Assembly (NCBI GenBank): GCA_040904565.1
Contig: JBBDTI010000075.1
Coordinates: forward strand, 32,001 to 96,000
Length of the DNA: 64,000 nucleotides
Direction of reading: 5' to 3'
From: Rhodothermales bacterium
GTDB taxonomy: Bacteria > Bacteroidota > Rhodothermia > Rhodothermales > VXPQ01
The position numbers were made by a program, and so were the translations under genes. Within the stretch, counting starts at the first letter, position 1; each line of letters starts with the position of its first letter. Of the stretch, positions 8,627 to 45,316 are shown piece by piece. Below the pieces are notes generated by a model that was not told where the DNA came from, ran no database searches, and saw only the letters and a list, made by a program, of their open reading frames with translations.

Positions 8627-9448
8627 CTATCCGGTAAAGAAATCGGGTAGCAGGGCAATTGGACTGGATTGTACGGGCGGTTCGTCGCCTGCGTCCATCC
8701 AAAGCGTCGTGCCGGGAGCGAGTTCCGCCAGAAGCTGCCGGCATGCCCCGCACGGCGTACAGCCCGACCGTTTGCGGCACGAGAGGTAGACGATGGAAGG
8801 GTGGCGAAACCCGTAGCTTACGGCCGTCCCAATGGCACTGCGTTCCGCACAGAGCACGTGCATCCAGTCCGCGTGCTCCACGTTGACCCCGGGGATATAG
8901 CCTTCTCCCGGGACTTCGAGTAGGCATCCAACCTTAAAATCGGAAAAAGGAGCGAACGCGTGGCGTGCGATCCGGCGGGCGGCCAACACCCCCTCCCGAT
9001 GGGAGAGGGAACCTGAAGGAATGCGAGCGTCGGAAGCAGAGCTTTTGCGGTCCGGTTCGTGACTATCGAATTCGGTCTCGTGCCGGGAAAGAAAGGGAGA
9101 GAGGGGAGATTCGGGCGCCGGAGCACCGGGCAGCGATCCGAGCAGGCGGGGACCTGTACGCTCGAGGTCGCGGAGCAGGGGCGTGCCTCGCGCGTACTGG
9201 ATTTCTTGAGGGTGGAACGGTCGTGACGAGACGACGGCCCGAATCGAATCGACCTGCCGGGCGACAGCCGTCGTGACGGCGTTCAGCAGCGCCGGGATCG
9301 TCAGGGAATAGGAGGCGCTTTCGACGCGGACTCCGGGAATCCATCGGCCGTCTTCCAGGACGAGGGTCACGGCGTCGTGCTGCCCGGAAAACGGGACGTG
9401 CGCTGAGCGGGCCGACGTCGTCAGGCGTGCTTCGTACGAATCGGTCAC
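8627..9448 (-). CDS. cdd: Cytidine deaminase, two-domain
   Basis: C-terminal APFSDFKVG..GVNVE..LCAERSAI..PCGACRQ; degenerate N-terminal copy of the domain. Confidence 0.85.
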   Translation of the reverse strand: MTDSYEARLTTSARSAHVPFSGQHDAVTLVLEDGRWIPGVRVESASYSLTIPALLNAVTTAVARQVDSIRAVVSSRPFHPQEIQYARGTPLLRDLERTGPRLLGSLPGAPAPESPLSPFLSRHETEFDSHEPDRKSSASDARIPSGSLSHREGVLAARRIARHAFAPFSDFKVGCLLEVPGEGYIPGVNVEHADWMHVLCAERSAIGTAVSYGFRHPSIVYLSCRKRSGCTPCGACRQLLAELAPGTTLWMDAGDEPPVQSSPIALLPDFFTG

Positions 9449-9555
9449 GGACGTGGGATACCTTTCGTTTGCCGTAGGATTACGGTGAATTTACGGGAAC
9501 GGTTTGCACCCGGCCGATATTCTGGGCTAGCTTGACGGCGGATGCACGAGTACTG

Positions 9556-9644
9556 GCCGGGATGGCGGAATTGGTAGACGCAACGGACTTAAAATCCGTT
9601 GGGCGTATGCGCCCGTGCGGGTTCGAGTCCCGCTCCCGGTACCA
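9556..9644 (+). tRNA. tRNA-Leu (anticodon TAA), CCA encoded
   Basis: Acceptor stem GCCGGGA/TCCCGGT followed by ACCA; D-loop TTGGTAGAC; anticodon arm ACGGA-CTTAAAA-TCCGT; long variable arm; T-loop GTTCGAGTC. Confidence 0.97.
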
Positions 9645-9765
9645 TCGCCTTTACTCCCGGCACGATCGGGTTCGATCGGACCGATGAAGGCTTCCGTCAT
9701 CGGAGTGGCGCGCATCAGAACCGCGGTATGCCGGCCCTGTGCTGAAAAGTTGCGCCGAGGACATA

Positions 9766-9951
9766 CTAACGCTCTTTCCAGGGCCGCCAGGACCACCCCA
9801 TTAGATTCTCTAGTATTAAAAAACCACCCAGCGTAAAGAGCACGGCGAACCCGTAGATGAAGCTCGATAGGAGGACCGAAGCGGTTTTTCGTGCGTTTTT
9901 CGGTCCGGACGTCTGGGAAGCGGATGTCTCGGATCTGGATCTGTCGGACAT
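9766..9951 (-). CDS. Possible small single-pass membrane protein (61 aa)
   Basis: Polar N-terminus, one clean hydrophobic helix VLLSSFIYGFAVLFTLGGFLIL, Trp-rich basic tail; lies in otherwise empty intergenic space. Confidence 0.5.
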   Translation of the reverse strand: MSDRSRSETSASQTSGPKNARKTASVLLSSFIYGFAVLFTLGGFLILENLMGWSWRPWKER

Positions 9952-10188
9952 GGACTCGTGCCTGGTTTCTTCCTGGGCCGGCGACGTGCGGTACGACGTC
10001 GAAAGTCCGCCCCACCGGCTTCAATATCTCACAATACGTTTGGAAGTACAATGGAGCGCGGATTGGGGCTAATCGATGGGATCGTGTTAAGGCCGGGAGA
10101 TTAGAAGCGCTTTCAACGGGCCGTAGTTTGCTGGATGAGCGGTCATACACGATCTTAGCGCGCATATTTTTTGGAGATCAACGGAATC

Positions 10189-11289
10189 ATGGCGCAACGA
10201 ATCGTCGTCAAGATTGGAACGAGTGTACTGACCGGGGGCACCAAGCGTCTCGATCGAGGTCAGATGGTCGAGATCGTTCGTCAGTGTGCCGCGCTGCACG
10301 AAGAGGGGATCGATCTGGTTATTTGCAGTTCGGGTGCGATAGCGGCCGGACGGGAGCGTCTCGGTCTGGCCGAAATGCCGACATCGCTGTCCGAAAAGCA
10401 GATGCTTGCAGCGGTCGGACAGAGTCGTCTCATGGAGACGTGGGAGCAGCTCTTCGGACTCTACGACATCCACGTCGGACAGATGCTGATCACGCGGGCC
10501 GACGTGGAGAATCGTCACCGGTTCCTCAATGCACGGGATACGCTCCAGGCACTGCTAGAGCACCGCATCATTCCCGTGATCAACGAGAACGATGCCGTTG
10601 CCACGTCGGAAATCCGCGTCGGAGATAACGACAACCTCTCCGCACTGTGCGTTCTGCTGGCGGAAGCGGATCTGCTTGTCATGTTGACGGATCAGCCGGG
10701 GCTCTTTACGAAGGATCCCCGCACGAATCCGGACGCGGAGTTGATTTCCGAAGTACGCCACATCGACGACGCGCTGCACGAGGCCGCGGGAGGCAGCCGA
10801 TCGGGGCTGGGCGTCGGGGGAATGCGTACGAAACTGGAGGCGGCGGATGTTGCGCGACGGGCCGGGGCGGACGTGGTTATTGCGGCAGGAAGTGCACCAA
10901 ACATATTGCGAAGGATCGTGGCAAGGGAGCGGGTGGGTACCCGGTTTCCCGCCATCGATACGCCGCTCGAAAATCGCAAGCGATGGATCTTCGGCGGAAA
11001 CGTTGCGTCGGGAGTCATTACAGTTGATGCCGGCGCCGCGGAAGCGCTGGCGGTCAAGGGTGGGAGTCTGCTCCCGGCGGGCATCACCGGCGTCCGTGGA
11101 TCGTTCGAGCGGGGAGATGTCGTCCGAATCGTGGGAGCGGGTGGAAAGGATCTCGGTCGAGGGATTGCTCGGTACGATAGCTCGGATGCCGATCGCATCA
11201 GGGGGGTGCAGTCGGAGGCGATCCATGACATACTGGGGTACGCATACGGGCCCGTGGTCGTCCATCGAGACGATCTCATTCTCATTTAG
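10189..11289 (+). CDS. proB: Glutamate 5-kinase with PUA domain
   Basis: [39 protein letters not shown]-terminal VHRDDL; ATG at 10189. Confidence 0.97.
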
Positions 11290-37216: not shown

Positions 37217-39538
37217 ATGGCAATGCAGGCGACAAAGGATGACGAGAATAGGTCCGGAGACGGTTCCGTTGATTTCGGCGTGCGCGGCATGACGTGCGCC
37301 GCGTGCGTACGGCGCGTAGAGCAAGCCCTGAGCGGCGTCGACGGCGTGGAAGATGTCGAGGTCAATCTCGCGATGGAGCGGGCGCGTGTTCGCTATGCAG
37401 GCGACGGGCATGCTCCGGAGACCTTTTACCGGGTCGTTCGCGATGCCGGCTATGACGTAATCGAGGCCACGGGTGACGCACAGGAGCAGGCGGCGGCCGA
37501 AGAGGTTGCTCGTGAAGCGGAACGCAGAGAGCTGCTTCGCCGTGTCGTCGTCGCGGGTGCCCTGACGGTACCGATCGTCATGATGCAGATGGTGCCCATG
37601 GCATGGGCGGGCGCTGCCCAGCTGCTGTATGGGATGATTCCCCAAAGCCGGCTGAACTACCTGCTTTTCGTGCTGGCGAGTGTCGTGCAGTTCGGTCCCG
37701 GCCTGCGTTTTTACGTGCTGGGATGGAAGGCGACGCGCGCGATGAGTCCGGATATGAACACGCTCGTCATGCTGGGCACGAGTGCCGCGTATGGATACTC
37801 GGTCGTGGCCACGTTCGTGCCGCGCGTACTGCCGGCCGGGACGGTTCACGTCTATTACGAGGCCTCGGCGGCGATCATCGCGCTCATCCTGCTTGGCAAA
37901 TACATGGAGGCGCGGGCGAAAGGCCGAACGAGCGAAGCGATGAAAACGCTGCTCGAGCTGCGTCCGAGTACGGCGCTCGTGGTCCGAGATGGAGAAGAAA
38001 GGGAAATCGCTGTAGACGCCGTACAGCCGGGCGATCTCGTGCTGGTTCGACCAGGTGACCGCATTCCGGTCGACGGGGTGCTGGAAGAGGGCTCCACGTA
38101 CGTGGACGAATCCATGATCAGTGGCGAGCCCGTGCCCGTAGCGAAAGCGGCGGGCGACGAGGTCGTCGGCGGCACGGTCAATGAACGCGGGAGCTTCACG
38201 TTTCGCGCTACGCGTGTCGGACGCGACACGGTGCTTGCACACATCATTCGCATGGTCGAGGAAGCGCAGAGTTCCAAGCCGCAGATCCAGGCTCTCGCCG
38301 ATCGCGTCGTGGCCGTATTCGTACCCGTCGTCCTGGCGATAGCAACCGTTACGTTTGTCGGATGGATGATATGGGGCCCGACCCCGGCGCTCACGTTTGC
38401 GCTCGTCGCGGCCGTGTCCGTGCTCATCATCGCGTGTCCGTGTGCGATGGGTTTGGCCACACCCACGTCGGTGATGGTGGGAACGGGCAAGGCGGCCGAA
38501 ATGGGCGTCCTCTTCCGTCGCGGTTCAGCGCTGGAAACGCTCGCGGAGGCAGACACCATCGTACTCGACAAGACGGGTACGCTTACGGAAGGGCGGCCGC
38601 GGTTGACGGACGTGCATCCGGCCCCCGCGTTCAGCCGAACGGAGGTGCTCCGCCTGGCGGCCGCCGTAGAAAAACGTTCCGAACACCCGATCGGACAGGC
38701 TATCGTCGACGCCGCGCAGGAAGAGGGGGTGGACGTGCCGGACGTATCCAGGGCCTCGGCGGAAGCCGGACTGGGTATTCGGGCGGACGTCGAGGGTGCC
38801 TCCGTGCTGATCGGATCCGAACGATTTCTGACGTCGGAGGGCATCGACGCGGGCTCGCTATCCCGAACGGCCACGGATCTGGCGGAGGGCGGCCGGACGA
38901 CCGTATTCCTGGCCGTCGACGGATCCGTGGCCGGCGTATTTGCCGTGTCCGATCCGTTGAAGGACAGCTCCGTGGCGACGGTGGCCGAGTTGAAGCGACT
39001 CGGATACCGGGTCGCGATGATCACCGGCGATGCGCGCGGCACCGCCGAGACCATCGCGGAGCGGCTCGGCATAGACGAGGTGGTGGCGCAGGTCCTGCCC
39101 GACCAGAAAGCCGATGCCGTCCGCCGTTTCCAGGAGGAGGGGCGACGCGTCGTCTTCGTAGGCGACGGGATCAACGACGCACCTGCTCTGGCGCAGGCGG
39201 ACGTCGGCGTGGCCATCGGAACGGGCACCGACGTAGCCATCGAGGCGGGTGATGTGATCCTGATGTCGGGAGACCCGCGCGGTCTGGTCAATGCGCTGGC
39301 GCTCTCACGTCAGACGCTCCGCAATATCAAGCAGAATCTTTTCTGGGCCTTCGCCTACAACGTGGCCCTAATTCCCGTAGCGGCGGGGGCCCTGTATCCC
39401 GTATTCGAGCAGCTGCTCTCGCCCGTTTTCGCCGCCGCCGCCATGGGCGTGTCCAGCATCTTCGTGCTGTCGAACGCCCTGCGTCTGAAGCGTTTCCGTC
39501 CGGTCATGCCGCCTCGTCCGTCTCCGACGGCGGCCTGA
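37217..39538 (+). CDS. copA: Copper-translocating P1B-1 ATPase
   Basis: [32 protein letters not shown]. Confidence 0.96.
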
Positions 39539-39623
39539 GTCCATGGCTGCCGTGACGGCACGGTGCCTGCTTCCCGTTCGCCGGCCGATGCTCCCGGTCA
39601 CGTTTTTCGCCGGTCAGGTTCTC

Positions 39624-40181
39624 TCAGGCATTTTTCAGGACGTTCACCAGCGAAAACTCACTGATGAGCGCCTCGCTGAAGGCTCCGAGATCGGCGGGCG
39701 TACGGCTCGTGATGAGACCGTCGTCGACGACCACGGCCTGATCCACCCAATCTGCTCCCGCGTTCACCAGGTCCCTTCGGATAGCGGGATAGGAGGTAAG
39801 ACGCCGGCTGCGCACGACGTCGGCATCGATAAGGATTTGCGGCCCGTGGCAGATGGCAGCTACGGGTTTCCCGTCCCCGAAAAACGTGCGTACGAAATCT
39901 ACGGCGTGCTCGTTCATGCGAAGCGTATCGGGATTCATGACGCCGCCCGGCAGCAGCAGCGCGTCGAAATCATCCGACTCGGCCTCGGCGAGCGTCAGGT
40001 CGACCTCCACGTCGTCTCCCCAGTTCGACCGATCCCATCCAGTGATCGCATCCGAAGTTGGAGCGACAACGACCGGCTCCGCGCCGGCTGCTTCCAGCGC
40101 ATTCCGGGGTTCGATGAGTTCCACCTGCTCAAAACCATCCGTGGCGAGAACGGCGACGCGGATTCCATCCAGATTCGGCAT
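39624..40181 (-). CDS. PfpI/DJ-1 family deglycase/protease (YhbO-like)
   Basis: GFEQVEL..P, LLLPGG, AAICHGP, TSR.P.DL. Confidence 0.93.
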   Translation of the reverse strand: MPNLDGIRVAVLATDGFEQVELIEPRNALEAAGAEPVVVAPTSDAITGWDRSNWGDDVEVDLTLAEAESDDFDALLLPGGVMNPDTLRMNEHAVDFVRTFFGDGKPVAAICHGPQILIDADVVRSRRLTSYPAIRRDLVNAGADWVDQAVVVDDGLITSRTPADLGAFSEALISEFSLVNVLKNA

Positions 40182-40529
40182 GTGTGCGGTTTATCTCTCG
40201 AAAAGGTTGATCCGATATTTTCGCCCGTCGTCCGGCGATGCGGGGATACCGTACTGCAGTCGTTCGAACGCACGGCTCGTGATCGATCGCATAACGCATG
40301 TACGGACGCGAACCGATCATTACATGGGTCGCTCTCCGGGCGTGTTCCACAAGAGCGGCGTGCCGAAAGCAACGACGGCGTGACATCTGGCCGTCACGCG
40401 CGGCGCGCGATGAATGTGTGCCGTACGTACGGTTGATTCCGGTGAACCGTGCGTATCTATTACGCGGCCGGCCATACGCCGAGGTATGGCGAGAAGGAGC
40501 AGAATCACCGAACGCGCGATACGAGTACC

Positions 40530-40772
40530 GACGTCGAGCTCTATTATGATGGATTCGGTGACAGCTCCATTAACTTCGTCGTACGCTTCTGGATCGACTA
40601 CAGGAACCACAGTGACTACCTTGGGGCACGCAGCGACGCCATCAAGCGAATCAAGAAGGCCTTCGACGAGAACGGTATCACGATTCCATTTCCGATACGT
40701 ACGCTCGATTTCGGCGTGGTCGGCGGTGTGAACCTGGATGAGGTGCCGGCGAAAGGAAACGGAGGACTCTAG
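40530..40772 (+). pseudogene. C-terminal fragment of an MscS mechanosensitive channel
   Basis: GFGDSSINFVVRFW..AIKRIKKAFDENGITIPFPIRTL; no TM or beta domain upstream, and the preceding in-frame sequence is unrelated. Confidence 0.8.
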
Positions 40773-41716
40773 ACGTCGAGATAATTAGACGAGGAGTCAT
40801 CCGGTTTGGCGTGCGTGTAGCGACTGGTGGTGGCGAGCGATTTATGACCGAGCGTTTCCTTTACGAGATGCACGGGCGCGCCTTCATCCAGCGAATGTGA
40901 TGCGTGAGCATGTCTGAGCCAATGCGGTGACACCGCGTCTGAAAGTCCGGCCGCTCTCGCAGCCTCCTTGACGATTCTCCAGATCTGCTGCCTGGACAAA
41001 ACACCTCCTTTTCTCGAGCGAAATACGGGATCTTCCGAGCCGCCAAATCCGCTGCTCCGTTCGGCCTCGCGCAGCCTCGTGAGCGCATTCCACGTTGGAG
41101 GCGAAAGGAGAATACTTCGATTCTTGTCTCCTTTCCCGCGAACCATGATCTGCCCCGTCGATTCACCGGAGGAAGACTTGCGTGGTGTGGCGGACCGCCA
41201 CCGGAGAGCATTCAGTTCAGAAACACGGCCGCCGGACGCATAAAAGAGGCGTATCAGTACGCGATCTCGCTGCTTGTCGACCGCCTCCAGTAGCCGTTGC
41301 ACGGCCTCCTGGTCGAGTATTCGTTCAGCCAGGTCGTCGGCAACAGTGGGCGTCTTGATGGCGGCCCCAACGTTGAAGACGAAGTATCCAATCTTTTGAC
41401 CGAAGGAAAACAGGCTCTTTACAGTGGACAGTTTGCGAGCGATCGTAGCTTGCGCCAACCCACGATCGAACAACTCATCGGACCAGTCCTGAAGGTCCCG
41501 CAGCGTTACGTCGGAAAGATCTGCGTCGTTAAGAGCTTCGTCGACGAATGAGAGGAATTGCGTCAGATCTCGCTCGTAGGCCTCTTGTGTACTGTCGCTT
41601 TTCCCATGAAGCCAGAGGCGGATCAGTTGTTCGTCGTCGTCCGCCTCATTGCGATGTCGAACGCTACGATCTCGAACGACTATCTCCGTATCTTTATGAC
41701 TCGAAAGAGATTTCAT
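40769..41716 (-). CDS. Xer-like tyrosine recombinase
   Basis: N-terminal SAM-like LWLHGKS.STQEAY; intact catalytic set R (GGRVSE), K (GKGDK), HWLR, LGH, Y (TSRY). Start ATG 41716; the alternative ATG at 41776 lies inside the palindrome. Confidence 0.93.
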   Translation of the reverse strand: MKSLSSHKDTEIVVRDRSVRHRNEADDDEQLIRLWLHGKSDSTQEAYERDLTQFLSFVDEALNDADLSDVTLRDLQDWSDELFDRGLAQATIARKLSTVKSLFSFGQKIGYFVFNVGAAIKTPTVADDLAERILDQEAVQRLLEAVDKQRDRVLIRLFYASGGRVSELNALRWRSATPRKSSSGESTGQIMVRGKGDKNRSILLSPPTWNALTRLREAERSSGFGGSEDPVFRSRKGGVLSRQQIWRIVKEAARAAGLSDAVSPHWLRHAHASHSLDEGAPVHLVKETLGHKSLATTSRYTHAKPDDSSSNYLDV

Positions 41717-41767
41717 GGCATCCTCAAATAGAACCGGCAATCCGGGGTACGTCGCGCCCCGTTCTGA

Positions 41768-41795
41768 ATGTAACATAATTAGTGTTATGTTACAT
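41768..41795. other. Symmetric dif-like recombination core site (11-6-11)
   Basis: ATGTAACATAA-TTAGTG-TTATGTTACAT: perfect inverted arms; the right arm is one base from the canonical XerD arm TTATGTTAAAT. Confidence 0.85.
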
Positions 41796-42138
41796 AAGCA
41801 AGCCGGAGTGGCCTAAATAAGGCCTGCACAACGGGTTCGGGCCATCGCCTATATGGTACCGGTCACTCATCGTCACTATACGCGACGCATCGTCACTCTT
41901 CGTGAAGCGTCCTCCGGCATAGCGAACGCTCGGCACCATGTACCGTGGTACAACCGGCCCGGGTGTATCGGCACCTGCGAGGCCACGTTGTGTTGGGTCT
42001 AATTGGGTCCGGCTGGGCCTGGCTGGACGGAGCCGAATTGAACCACGCCGTACGGAGCACGCGAAAAGGTGCGCTCCAGGTGCGATCCGGCGGCCGGCTC
42101 GGGCAGACCGTTCTATTGCGATGACCTCACGTTCTACG

Positions 42139-43344
42139 TTAAGTGCCCTTCGCGTCCGCTGCAGCCACGTCCGCCGGATAGCGGAAGCTGGCGGCGAGGC
42201 TCCGGTTCGTCGGCATCGTATCGGATATCAGGGCGTGGACCGTTCCGCCATGCTTTACCGTGTGCACGGCGGCGAGATCGAGCAGGTCTTCATCACCTGT
42301 TTTATGCTCGTCGTGCAGCTCGACGGAGTTGTTGTCGGCATCGTAAAATCCCCATAGATGCGAACCCATTTCGACAAACAACGTGTCGATGCGTCCGTAG
42401 ACGGCCGCGGGGATTACTTCACGGATGTCATCGGACGCAAGTCGATCGCCGTTTCCAAGAAGCTGCATGAATCTGTCGAGTGCAGCACGCTGCGTCTCCA
42501 TGAACCGCGGCTCAACGATGTCCCACGCTTTCGCGTGCATTTCCTTCGGTTTCAGGTGATCGGGATTTCCGGCGACGATCGAATCGTCGACGAGATTGCC
42601 GTATCCGTTCACTACCCGGTAGATCGGCAGATAATATTCTACCCCTGCCAGTACGAGCGGCGCCGAGTTCTCTCGCAGCACGTTACGCACTCCTTCATCC
42701 ACGCCATGAAAGAAGCGGATCAATTGATCGTGCGGACGATGCGGTTCGTCGTCGGAGTTGACCCCGTGGCCGTGAAATATGGCATCCTGCCTACCACCGG
42801 CCACGTTGGCAGTACGGTTCTGAAGCGACCGCTGGAATTCCTCCTTGGCGAGGACGTCGACCAGACTCTCCGGAAGCTCCTTTGATTCGATTTCGCTCAT
42901 GCTGTAATGCGTACCTTGAAAGAGACGCACCTTGTTCTGACTGAGTGCAAGCAGATAGAACTCATTGTTCGCTGCCAGAAGCGGAAAGAGCGGCTTGATG
43001 TGAAATCGCTTGCCCGTAAAGACAAATTCGTCGAAGTCGACGGGCAGGCGGTAGAACCGGGCCTCATCGGGCGTCATGAAGGCCGCAAAGCCGTCACTCT
43101 GATCGAGCCAAAACGAAGGGCGCTCCGTTAACGTAGCCAGCGGCTCGAGCAAGGCATCGATCTCCGCATCGCGATAGCCCTGCTCGGCTAGCTCTCGCCG
43201 GGCTGTCTTGAGCAGATTCTTTAACCGAATCGGATTCTGTGACAGCTCGGATTCGACGTGATACGTAGGCATGTAAATCGAAACGCAGGGCTCGCCTTTG
43301 AGGGCCGCCAGTTCCGTGAGTTGCTCCTTACTAAAGAGATCCAT
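42139..43344 (-). CDS. Bacterial archaeo-eukaryotic release factor homolog (baeRF3/baeRF7-like)
   Basis: PCVSIYMPT, IRLKNLL, FHIKPL.P, LALSQN..RL, FHGHG, PLVLAG, AA..GRIDTL, EDLLD.A...GG.V. Confidence 0.8.
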   Translation of the reverse strand: MDLFSKEQLTELAALKGEPCVSIYMPTYHVESELSQNPIRLKNLLKTARRELAEQGYRDAEIDALLEPLATLTERPSFWLDQSDGFAAFMTPDEARFYRLPVDFDEFVFTGKRFHIKPLFPLLAANNEFYLLALSQNKVRLFQGTHYSMSEIESKELPESLVDVLAKEEFQRSLQNRTANVAGGRQDAIFHGHGVNSDDEPHRPHDQLIRFFHGVDEGVRNVLRENSAPLVLAGVEYYLPIYRVVNGYGNLVDDSIVAGNPDHLKPKEMHAKAWDIVEPRFMETQRAALDRFMQLLGNGDRLASDDIREVIPAAVYGRIDTLFVEMGSHLWGFYDADNNSVELHDEHKTGDEDLLDLAAVHTVKHGGTVHALISDTMPTNRSLAASFRYPADVAAADAKGT

Positions 43345-43630
43345 ATGCGTACACGGTTTGAGATAAATACCGGCAAAGCTACATGGGTTAATATGCAATT
43401 CCGCGGATTAGGTTTGATCGGGCCGTGTGACGTTGATGTGAGACTCGACCGCTTCGGTCCGCACTCTCGCGGTGTCCCGGACCCGGCTACAGTCAGGATG
43501 CGGCATCCCGCACAGCTGGAATGGAAGCGGCCGGACCGCCAGGCGGCTGCGGGCGTATCGATTGCGGGGATACCCTACATTTTCTTACACGACGTCGCCG
43601 CTTCGAAGTAGCTTTTCGCGCTCTAATCGC

Positions 43631-44332
43631 ATGGAAGACCTAACACAGTGGGTACAGTATTCCGACCATCTGTTCGAGCACGCCGTGCGTATCGCCGTCG
43701 CCCTGGTGTGTGGGCTCATGCTCGGTATCGAGCGCGAGCGCAAGGATAAACCTGCCGGAATGCGAACGATTCTTCTGATTACGCTCGGAGCGGCGCTGTT
43801 CATGATCATGAGCAACATCGTCACCGTGGCGTACGAATGGCCGGTCGAGACGCGGGTCGACCCATCCCGTATTGCCGCAGGGGTCGTGACCGGCATCGGT
43901 TTTCTGGGTGCCGGCACGATCATCCAGGCGCGCGGCTCGGTCCACGGTCTTACGACGGCTGCCGTCATATGGGTGTCGGCAGGCATCGGAATGTGCGCCG
44001 GCATGGGCTACGCGGCCATGGCTTTTTTCTTCACGGCGATCGTCCTGCTGACGCTCATCGCCATGGATCCGCTGCGTCACCGGCTTGCTCGCTTGGGCAA
44101 CCGGTATGAGTTGCTCGTGATTGCACCGAATGATTCGCTCGTGCTCGAACGGATCCGCTACGTTCTCCTCGGCCACGACGTACACGACGACGACGTTGAA
44201 CTCCGCGTCATCCCCGAAGACGAGCTCGAGATCGCCTTCGTGTATTTCGGATATGGCGGCGCCGCCCTGCGTCTTCTGGAGGCGCTCGCCCGTATCGAAG
44301 GCGTACACGGCAGGCGCACAACCAGCGAATAA
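43631..44332 (+). CDS. MgtC/SapB family membrane protein
   Basis: GIERE..KPAGMRT, DPSRIAAGVVTGIGFLGAG, VHGLTTAA.IW. Confidence 0.93.
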   Translation: MEDLTQWVQYSDHLFEHAVRIAVALVCGLMLGIERERKDKPAGMRTILLITLGAALFMIMSNIVTVAYEWPVETRVDPSRIAAGVVTGIGFLGAGTIIQARGSVHGLTTAAVIWVSAGIGMCAGMGYAAMAFFFTAIVLLTLIAMDPLRHRLARLGNRYELLVIAPNDSLVLERIRYVLLGHDVHDDDVELRVIPEDELEIAFVYFGYGGAALRLLEALARIEGVHGRRTTSE

Positions 44333-44377: not shown

Positions 44378-45316
44378 ATGGAGCCGTTCCTCATTCTCAC
44401 CGGACCAACCGCCGTCGGCAAGACGGCATTGAGCATGCAGCTGGCCGCCGAGCTCGACGCTGAGATCATCTCAGCCGACAGCCGCCAGGTGTACCGTGAG
44501 CTCAATGTCGGGACCGCCAAGCCGGATGAACAAGACCTGCAAAGGGTGCGACATCACTTTATTAACGAACGGTTCCTGGGCGAAGCCTTCACAGCAGGGA
44601 TCTTCCAGCGTGAGGCCTACGCACGAATCGAGGACGTGCTCGATCGCGGCCGAACGCCCCTCATCGTGGGCGGATCGACGCTGTACCTGAAGGCGCTCAA
44701 GCACGGGCTGGCGAACATCCCCGACATCCCGGAGGACGTGCGCGCCGACATCCGGAAGCGGCTGGACGACGAAGGACCCGAAACGCTCTACGCCGCGCTG
44801 CAGTCCGTCGACCCCCAAGCCGCCGAGACCATGGATCCGACAAAGTCACAGCGCATCGCTCGAGCCCTCGAGGTCTATGAGGCCACAGGTACACCCATCA
44901 CGGCGTATCACGACGAGCAGCCTCCTCCCCCCTATGCCTTCCTGACTGTCGTTCTGCATCGAGATCGACGCCAGCTCTACGACCGCATCAACCGCCGCGT
45001 CGACCGTATGCTTGACGACGGTCTCATCGAGGAGGTCCGGCAGCTTCTCGACGCCGGGCACGACCTCTCGATCAACCTCCTCCGGACCATCGGCTACAAG
45101 GAGCCGGTCGCGTACCTGCGCGGTGAGATCTCCCACGACGAAATGGTTCGGCGCATCAAGCGGAACACCCGCAGATATGCCAAGCGGCAGCTTACGTGGT
45201 TCCGCCGGGACGAGGACAACGTGTGGGTCGACGCCGCGGCCGATTCCAACGATCTCCGATCGGACATCCGTCAGCTGCTCGCACAGGCATCCGACGTCAG
45301 CTCGCCCGCCTCGTAG
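44378..45316 (+). CDS. miaA: tRNA dimethylallyltransferase
   Basis: GPTAVGKT, SADSRQVY, GTAKP, VGGSTLY, RIARALEV, IGYKE, TRRYAKRQLTWF. Confidence 0.97.
   Translation: MEPFLILTGPTAVGKTALSMQLAAELDAEIISADSRQVYRELNVGTAKPDEQDLQRVRHHFINERFLGEAFTAGIFQREAYARIEDVLDRGRTPLIVGGSTLYLKALKHGLANIPDIPEDVRADIRKRLDDEGPETLYAALQSVDPQAAETMDPTKSQRIARALEVYEATGTPITAYHDEQPPPPYAFLTVVLHRDRRQLYDRINRRVDRMLDDGLIEEVRQLLDAGHDLSINLLRTIGYKEPVAYLRGEISHDEMVRRIKRNTRRYAKRQLTWFRRDEDNVWVDAAADSNDLRSDIRQLLAQASDVSSPAS

Follow-up and report, generated by a model that had tools for sequence, protein, structure and literature searches.

Does this chromosome resolve its dimers with a single recombinase that acts on a site beside its own gene? 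The question is raised by a 64,000-nucleotide stretch of a Rhodothermales bacterium, here called the window (contig JBBDTI010000075.1, positions 32,001 to 96,000; G000:C75:32001-96000 in our coordinates, where G000 is the source genome), in which an AT-rich palindrome lies just upstream of a gene for a tyrosine recombinase. An earlier description of this DNA, made from the letters alone and referred to below as the sequence-only reading, had seen in the pair a solo Xer-like recombinase with its own dif-like site, a self-contained cassette in chromosomal context, and had offered two roles for it, an alternative dimer-resolution locus or a mobile module that captures stress genes. With a probability of roughly three in four, the 28-bp palindrome is in our view the dimer-resolution (dif) site of the chromosome, and the adjacent gene encodes its cognate XerD-like recombinase, which we call type A.

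A palindromic site with dif geometry

The site and the gene that adjoins it comprise the following features, in window coordinates.

41768..41795, no strand: dif-like recombination site of 28 bp, 11-6-11, 21% G+C (sequence, conservation beside homologous recombinases, GC-skew switch)
41768..41778, no strand: left arm ATGTAACATAA, an exact inverted copy of the right arm (sequence)
41779..41784, no strand: non-palindromic centre TTAGTG, where crossover presumably takes place and which would give the site its direction (sequence)
41785..41795, no strand: right arm TTATGTTACAT, with 10 of 11 bases as in the TTATGTTAAAT arm of the predicted Bacteroidetes dif (supplement table of PMC3025954)
40769..41717, minus strand: XerD-like tyrosine recombinase, type A, 315 amino acids plus stop (Pfam Phage_integrase and Phage_int_SAM_1, NCBIfam, invariant catalytic residues)

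The palindrome ATGTAACATAA-TTAGTG-TTATGTTACAT is the sole match to itself in the window when up to three mismatches are allowed, with no match in 100 shuffles, and at the same tolerance it is single in the whole assembly of 4,020,002 bases in 95 contigs. Shuffling leads one to expect 0.02 perfect palindromes of 11-6-11 geometry per window; 20 are present in the whole genome, and this site is the most AT-rich among them, with 6 G/C of 28 against about 60% G+C in the genome. A search for half-sites or second copies near the site returned only two chance 9/11 arm matches in the window, 25 kb off, and no degenerate second site (at least 16 of the 22 arm positions) was found in 24 related loci. Another perfect 28-bp palindrome, CGAATAACTCAG-TCGA-CTGAGTTATTCG, occurs on three contigs of the assembly (G000 C54:52931, C63:3402 and C85:3981, with a variant at C54:31660), and is probably part of a repeated element.

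The site is placed in non-coding DNA, between the start of the recombinase gene and the next conserved gene (42139-43398), and is overlapped only by a mechanical upstream ATG. Pfam assigns Phage_integrase (1.2e-30) and Phage_int_SAM_1 to the adjacent minus-strand open reading frame (ORF) as mechanically delimited (40769-41776), the first ATG of which falls within the palindrome; the database protein P0002 (315 amino acids, 100% identical) and its homologues begin with MKSLSS, corresponding to the ATG at 41717. Taking this start, 50 nt separate the start codon from the site. The sequence-only reading, which had placed an AT-rich 28-bp site of exact dif geometry and with two XerD-like arms 51 bp upstream of an intact recombinase, and had seen no second copy, transposase or replication gene, thus described the locus correctly in all these respects.

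The definition of dif given by Carnoy and Roten (2009, PMC2731167) comprises a non-coding location, 11-mer arms around a central hexanucleotide, low G+C and a conserved XerD-type arm, and at the sequence level the site agrees with it, being non-coding, palindromic and low in G+C, carrying a XerD-type arm and lying at the skew switch that marks the terminus. In the predicted dif of Bacteroidetes (Kono et al. 2011, PMC3025954) the TTATGTTAAAT arm is found together with unlike left arms; the supplement of that paper has neither Rhodothermus nor Salinibacter among its dif predictions.

The site lies at the replication terminus

The strand composition of the contig changes close to the site.

39299..44001, no strand: interval bracketing the GC-skew switch, read as the replication terminus (cumulative G-C maximum and two-segment change point)

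Along the 247,658-base contig, divided into 5-kb bins, 13 of the 15 bins left of the site have positive GC skew and all 34 right of it negative. The cumulative G-C maximum falls at contig position 71,299 (window 39299), 2.5 kb from the site, and the best two-segment change point at 76,001 (window 44001), 2.2 kb from it on the other side, with the site itself at 73,768-73,795 between the two. The same position is found in relatives: in five complete chromosomes that carry type A, sampled in 20-kb pieces out to ±220 kb, 19 of the 20 bins on the left have positive skew and 15 of the 20 on the right negative skew, and dnaA lies at 47.2-48.9% of the chromosome length from the site in all four complete type-A relatives that were searched. 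At the locus of the distant relative Orenia the change is sharp, from +0.104 to -0.181 over 10 kb on each side.

The palindrome is conserved together with the recombinase gene

If gene and site form one functional unit, the palindrome should be retained beside homologues of the recombinase. Orthologues of type A (50-67% identity) were found in 4 of 40 relatives, and the palindrome stands upstream of the gene in all four, with changes in the outer arm positions that are partly symmetric. A species-level scan with one genome per species returned 531 relatives, of which 80 loci were kept, and a site was called where a TAA-N6-TTA core was accompanied by at least 8 of 11 arm pairs. By this rule a site is present in 48 of the 80 loci, in 46 cases upstream of the gene, while four site-less loci in complete genomes have a single exact core 10-30 kb upstream of their type-A gene. 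The distance from gene to site therefore ranges among relatives from about 30 nt up to 30 kb; most close homologues have the site within a few tens of bases.

The manner in which the sites vary is informative about what reads them. Of 40 homologous sites, 39-40 keep base complementarity between the arms at each of positions 6-11 and 24 at outer position 4, and 15 are perfectly symmetric; the spacer measures 6 bp in every one (most commonly TTAACC, in 16). The inner part is thus constant, and each arm drifts on its own in the outer part, a pattern that fits two protein half-sites better than a hairpin, and the inner arm positions are also the most conserved ones in dif (PMC2731167). In distant members of the family both arms have changed together, for example to GCAAGATAA/TTATCATGC in Orenia and to GCAAGATTA/TAATCTTGC in two Chroococcidiopsidaceae.

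A search for the core alone, with at most one mismatch, across 41 relatives located it beside the type-A gene in 5 of the 5 genomes that have one; one further exact match adjoins a recombinase of 26% identity, and the remaining matches, all with one mismatch, belong to the same five genomes and three others. Of 10 complete type-A genomes, 9 have a single exact copy of the 20-bp core; the other one, G042, taken from matching coordinates to be the same genome as G075, has two family genes, each with a site. Relatives of about 50% identity extend to Chloroflexota, Cyanobacteria, Acidobacteriota, Planctomycetota, Armatimonadota and Orenia, and among eight cyanobacterial loci of the family four (L089, L092, L105 and L110) have an upstream palindrome that co-varies, for example AATGCAAGATTA-N6-TAATCTTGCATT, and that is a candidate site. 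The cultured type-A organism Rubrivirga litoralis has two homologues.

A catalytically complete recombinase outside the modelled Xer families

The residues R164, K195, H265, R268, H291 and Y300 (P0002 numbering) are invariant in an alignment of 25 sequences, which gives the type-A protein the complete catalytic set of a tyrosine recombinase. Its NCBIfam scores are 194.4 bits for XerC (TIGR02224, cut-off 335.15), 193.4 for XerD (TIGR02225, 329.6), 163.4 for XerA (NF040815, 220) and 62 for XerS (NF003462, 267). Judged by score, the protein lies outside every Xer family that has a model, with XerD nearest: the closest solved chains are E. coli XerD (1a0p, 99 bits), Pyrococcus XerA (4a8e, 86 bits) and XerH (5jjv, 48 bits), for which the NCBIfam results contain no model.

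The source genome encodes nine tyrosine recombinases, of which the type-A protein scores highest and none reaches the XerC or XerD cut-off. Across 41 Rhodothermales genomes there is likewise no match above the XerD cut-off that could stand for a canonical Xer protein. Three tyrosine recombinase genes lie next to each other on a 5.5-kb contig (G000:C52:1781-5008), in the layout of a recombinase-in-trio element.

Past the catalytic tyrosine, the type-A protein (P0002 residues 305-315) ends in a tail, D-S-S/A-x-x-Y-L/I, which is invariant in the type-A alignment. A similar tail closes the type-B recombinase introduced in the next section (P0122 residues 313-324), and it is missing from the arginine-less paralogue discussed further below.

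An unrelated cassette occupies the same locus in other Rhodothermales

Most members of the source family do without type A. G008, a complete 2.88-Mb genome of the same family without type A, changes from positive to negative skew between about 140 and 230 kb, and at this switch carries another palindrome, TCTACTTCCGATAA-CAGTTC-TTATCGGAAGTAAA (146,405-146,438). A recombinase gene starts about 220 bp downstream of it. The encoded protein (P0122, 329 amino acids), which we call type B, shares 23% identity with the type-A protein and stays below all Xer cut-offs. The type-B palindrome is present again at 11 of 12 close type-B loci and at 5 of 7 further ones, and two more complete genomes have mostly positive skew to its left and mostly negative skew to its right. 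We propose on these grounds that the type-B recombinase and its palindrome are a functional equivalent of the type-A cassette. Another candidate, a 16-nt CATAA-N6-TTATG palindrome considered as the dif of genus g8, was rejected, being embedded in conserved GC-rich sequence and, in G008, situated away from the skew switch.

Two genes of the window anchor the comparison of the two loci.

44378..45316, plus strand: miaA (isopentenyl pyrophosphate transferase), synteny anchor; in G008 it comes directly after the type-B recombinase gene (Pfam IPPT, synteny)
37217..39538, plus strand: heavy-metal P-type ATPase, which anchors the synteny on the opposite side (Pfam; synteny with G008, G001 and G004)

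The window and the G008 locus are colinear over miaA, a TetR gene, a methyltransferase gene and the genes that follow, with the P-type ATPase on the other side, and an 11-kb block is inverted between the two. The gene order of the window is kept in G001 and G004, two type-A genomes of the same family.

The distribution of the two cassettes was surveyed in 174 Rhodothermales genomes of at least 90% completeness, with thresholds of E<=1e-60 for type A and E<=1e-30 for type B. Type A was found in 60 genomes and type B in 108; 48 have type A only and 96 type B only. One family has type A in 32 of 34 genomes, almost always in single copy, and type B in none. In the family of the source genome, which itself has type A and no type B, the proportions among the other 14 genomes are reversed (type B in 13, type A in one). 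Our reading of this pattern is that one cassette was displaced by another at an ancestral terminus locus within Rhodothermales. Nine of the 12 genomes that have both types show weak, adjacent matches in one family and may represent a third arrangement. Divergent A-like and B-like genes lie side by side in one family (for example at G155:C229:6447-8339 and G153:C1:1873811-1876056) and at G183:C44:624-2382, which may be a two-gene arrangement.

A natural insertion at the site in a relative

A relative, G188 (locus L245, C1:2297112-2300025), carries a 2.9-kb segment bracketed by a half-site and a full site. At 2,297,112 it has the left flank of a sister genome (L050) and the left arm, and homology stops 2 nt into the central region. 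The one long ORF of the segment combines GmrSD_N and GmrSD_C domains and is a restriction gene of the GmrSD family. The structure suggests integration by a crossover in the central region, which would leave just such a remnant, as with elements that exploit Xer. The case is a single one, from a relative, in which the DNA beyond the site is rearranged as well. In G188, 28.6 kb lie between the site and the type-A gene, with no remnant of an arm at the far end.

Proposed mechanism and alternatives

In the mechanism that we propose, one monomer of the type-A recombinase would bind each of the two identical arms, and it is from this identity of the arms that a homotetramer is inferred. Two sister sites meeting at the closing septum would bring together a tetramer of one protein, which would catalyse strand exchange across the 6-bp non-palindromic centre, the asymmetry of the centre fixing the alignment of both sites. 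A chromosome dimer would thereby be resolved to monomers, a step that the FtsK translocase probably controls. An FtsK possessing a gamma domain is encoded on the same contig, at 52 kb from the site; a predicted complex of the type-A catalytic domain with this FtsK gamma domain had a score of 0.00 (mark 0.32), which speaks neither for nor against an interaction. Gene and site would constitute one cassette, and in the source lineage type A would have replaced the unrelated type B at the same terminus locus.

For the role of the locus, the sequence-only reading had the right idea in naming dimer resolution, which the terminus position and the lack of canonical XerC and XerD make the best explanation, but the word alternative does not suit what is probably the main locus. 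Its other suggestion, a mobile module capturing stress genes, does not fit the locus because the site is single, the flanks keep their synteny and mobility genes are lacking, even if a defence gene did insert at the site in G188. Its notion of a self-contained cassette in chromosomal context is borne out, and the palindrome is a genuine and conserved companion of the recombinase. The description as a solo recombinase survives in part: no XerC or XerD above the cut-off was found in the source genome or the 41 Rhodothermales, but a second, arginine-less Xer paralogue is widespread, as described below.

Several observations weigh against the dif assignment or its simplest form. In flanks of ±10 kb, left-minus-right skew is positive in just 31 of 49 loci, with signs +/- in 14 and -/+ in 5; this pooled measure was too noisy and was therefore replaced by the sampling to ±220 kb given above. 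FtsK-orienting polar sequences (KOPS), whose polarity might have been expected to converge on the site, could not be recognized, as no strand-polar 8-mer doing so is common to the genomes compared; the most skewed 8-mers on the contig of the site are purine-rich, and their skew is inconsistent in five other genomes. At the thresholds used, 12 of the 174 genomes have both cassettes and 18 have neither. The remaining such observations concern a second Xer-like protein, further copies of the cassette and canonical Xer proteins in other phyla, and are best considered with the explanations that they favour.

The second protein is P0123, an Xer-like paralogue of 322 amino acids encoded outside the window on another contig than the site (G000:C72:92117-93082, locus L112/L218). 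It lacks both catalytic arginines (GG-LSEIE, HSLTH) and keeps the lysine, both histidines and the tyrosine in 7 of 7 aligned sequences, which suggests that it may be a pseudo-recombinase. Of the 174 Rhodothermales genomes, 170 have one copy of it, with 60-80% identity in most families. Its presence in the source genome and in nearly the whole order leaves a single-recombinase system unproven and a two-protein complex conceivable, in which the palindrome would still be dif, type A would do the chemistry, and P0123 would be a non-catalytic partner or be bound elsewhere in the complex. Its occurrence alike in type-A and type-B genomes speaks for this arrangement. We nevertheless consider such an arrangement unlikely, given that arms that are identical here and near-identical elsewhere require no second specificity, that the P0123 gene is unlinked to the site (about 1 Mb from it in G008), and that two proteins as different as type A and type B would both need the same partner. 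The DNA upstream of the P0123 gene, up to the contig end (G000:C72:93083-93810), is a run of imperfect direct repeats of about 20 nt (variants of CATCTG..GCGT.GG).

Further copies of the cassette raise the question of whether it is a mobile or plasmid-derived integrase or resolvase cassette with no role in dimer resolution, its position at the terminus being incidental. A decayed paralogue of type A (51% identity, one TAG stop) lies at G000:C94:13446-14228 (locus L244, about 9446-10228) in an island with a CTnDOT-type integrase and SIR2-like, SMC-like ATPase and Fic genes; upstream it has no more than an arm-like 9-mer, AATGTAACA. The second type-A gene of G042 (C1:1557360-1558278, 51% identity) has an exact core 75 bp upstream and is 1.4 Mb from the terminus copy. 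These extra copies imply that the cassette can also travel, in keeping with its scattered relatives in many phyla and its patchy presence in the source family. Proteins of the XerD family above the cut-off, moreover, co-occur with the type-A family in 2 of 5 genomes tested from other phyla, and the family is thus not the dimer-resolution system everywhere. At the locus itself, in contrast, the hallmarks of an integrated element are missing, with a single site in the genome rather than a flanking pair, no half-sites nearby, and no transposase, replication or phage genes among the 18 neighbouring ORFs scanned. The terminus position in the source contig and in all five complete relatives, the synteny of the flanks with genomes that carry the other cassette, the near-constant single-copy presence in one family and the complementarity to type B weigh against this reading as well, and we regard a mobile cassette with no part in dimer resolution as quite improbable.

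That the palindrome is mainly an operator or other transcription signal of the recombinase gene, for instance in the autoregulation raised by the sequence-only reading, is suggested by its place a few tens of bases before the start codon here and in most close homologues, and is compatible with the dif assignment, but as the sole explanation it is very improbable, since relatives retain the same sequence 1-30 kb from the gene, a scan of 41500-42200 gave no promoter of sigma-70 type and no terminator (Bacteroidota-type promoters being outside its coverage), and the breakpoint within the central region in G188 points to strand exchange.

Returning to the palindrome as dif and type A as its recombinase, one can join the observations into a broader picture, to which we give somewhat less than even credence. 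In it, dif and recombinase travel in Rhodothermales as an exchangeable cassette, and two unrelated cassettes, with 23% identity between their proteins and with different palindromes, have displaced each other at one terminus locus; type A would move between phyla and might act as an unrecognized dif system elsewhere, for example in some Cyanobacteria, and the arginine-less paralogue might serve as a non-catalytic partner of either cassette.

Neighbouring genes

The gene that directly adjoins the site on the side away from the recombinase (42139-43398, minus strand) is a bacterial eRF1-like gene of baeRF family 7. It is 65-69% conserved in G001 and G004 and has no match in the 110 kb of G008 that were compared. 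On the other side of the recombinase gene, the region 39543-40772 consists of two ORFs in the same frame, 39543-40436 and 40449-40772, split by a stop, only the second of which matches the MscS C-terminal domain, and may be a remnant gene; the part of this region best conserved in G001 and G004 is a minus-strand ORF, 39624-40181.

Significance

The locus offers a concrete and testable pair of dif site and recombinase for Rhodothermales, and with it a sequence marker of the terminus for draft and metagenome-assembled genomes. A dif of canonical geometry in which both arms are of XerD type and a single XerD-like protein acts on them would be a form between XerCD and the known single-recombinase systems, and two unrelated, complementary cassettes at one syntenic locus offer, on our reading of their distribution, a clear example from nature of a housekeeping recombination system undergoing non-orthologous displacement. 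The cyanobacterial homologues with co-varying palindromes provide a lead on a phylum for which dif prediction failed, as it did for Planctomycetes (PMC3025954), for which no dif sites are reported as predicted (PMC6416890), and in which Oscillatoriophycideae have been given a separate "Cyan" subgroup (PMC8138268). The literature found on single-recombinase Xer systems includes nothing on Rhodothermales or Bacteroidota, and no paper was found that joins Rhodotherm, Xer and a dif site.

Comparison with known systems

The site shares with XerCD/dif its 28 bp, 11-bp arms, 6-bp centre, low G+C, non-coding location, position at the skew terminus and the presence of an FtsK gamma domain, and E. coli XerD is the solved chain nearest to the type-A protein. 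It differs in that both arms are XerD-like, that one catalytically complete Xer-like protein is linked, its gene adjoining the site, and that this protein scores 193-194 bits where the XerC and XerD cut-offs are 330-335.

Among the single-recombinase systems, XerH/difH of Helicobacter and Campylobacter (PMC2731167; see also PMC3325230 and PMC5241119) is similar in having a usually linked gene, palindromic arms, a 6-bp centre and a position near the terminus, whereas the type-A protein scores 48 bits to XerH (5jjv) against 99 to XerD, and the difH consensus (Table 2 of PMC2731167) is another sequence. XerS/difSL of streptococci and lactococci (reviewed in PMC5357621; see also PMC1914069 and PMC2965235) likewise encodes one recombinase directly beside its site, as one module, but difSL measures 31 bp, its arms are unequal and its central region comprises 11 bp, and the XerS model gives the type-A protein 62 bits against a cut-off of 267. 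The XerL/dif system of Legionellales (PMC9765430) comes near in several ways, as a single recombinase missed by earlier surveys, with a palindromic, low-GC site near the terminus that a mobile element exploits; its lineage is reported as restricted to Legionellales, and it is by this description that we set type A apart from it. Archaeal XerA/dif also relies on a single Xer-type recombinase, to which the type-A protein is related at 86 bits (4a8e), but the XerA model gives 163.4 bits against 220, and the host here is a bacterium.

In integrative mobile elements exploiting Xer (IMEX) and in pdif modules (see PMC6449649 and PMC12907356), cargo is flanked by Xer sites. The GmrSD gene of G188, bracketed by a half-site and a full site, resembles such an arrangement and suggests that cargo can enter at sites of this type as IMEX elements do, whereas nothing similar is seen at the site in the window. 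Within the single-recombinase Xer/dif kind, the locus is distinguished by its double XerD-type arms, by the displacement of cassettes within one order and by the arginine-less paralogue that accompanies it.

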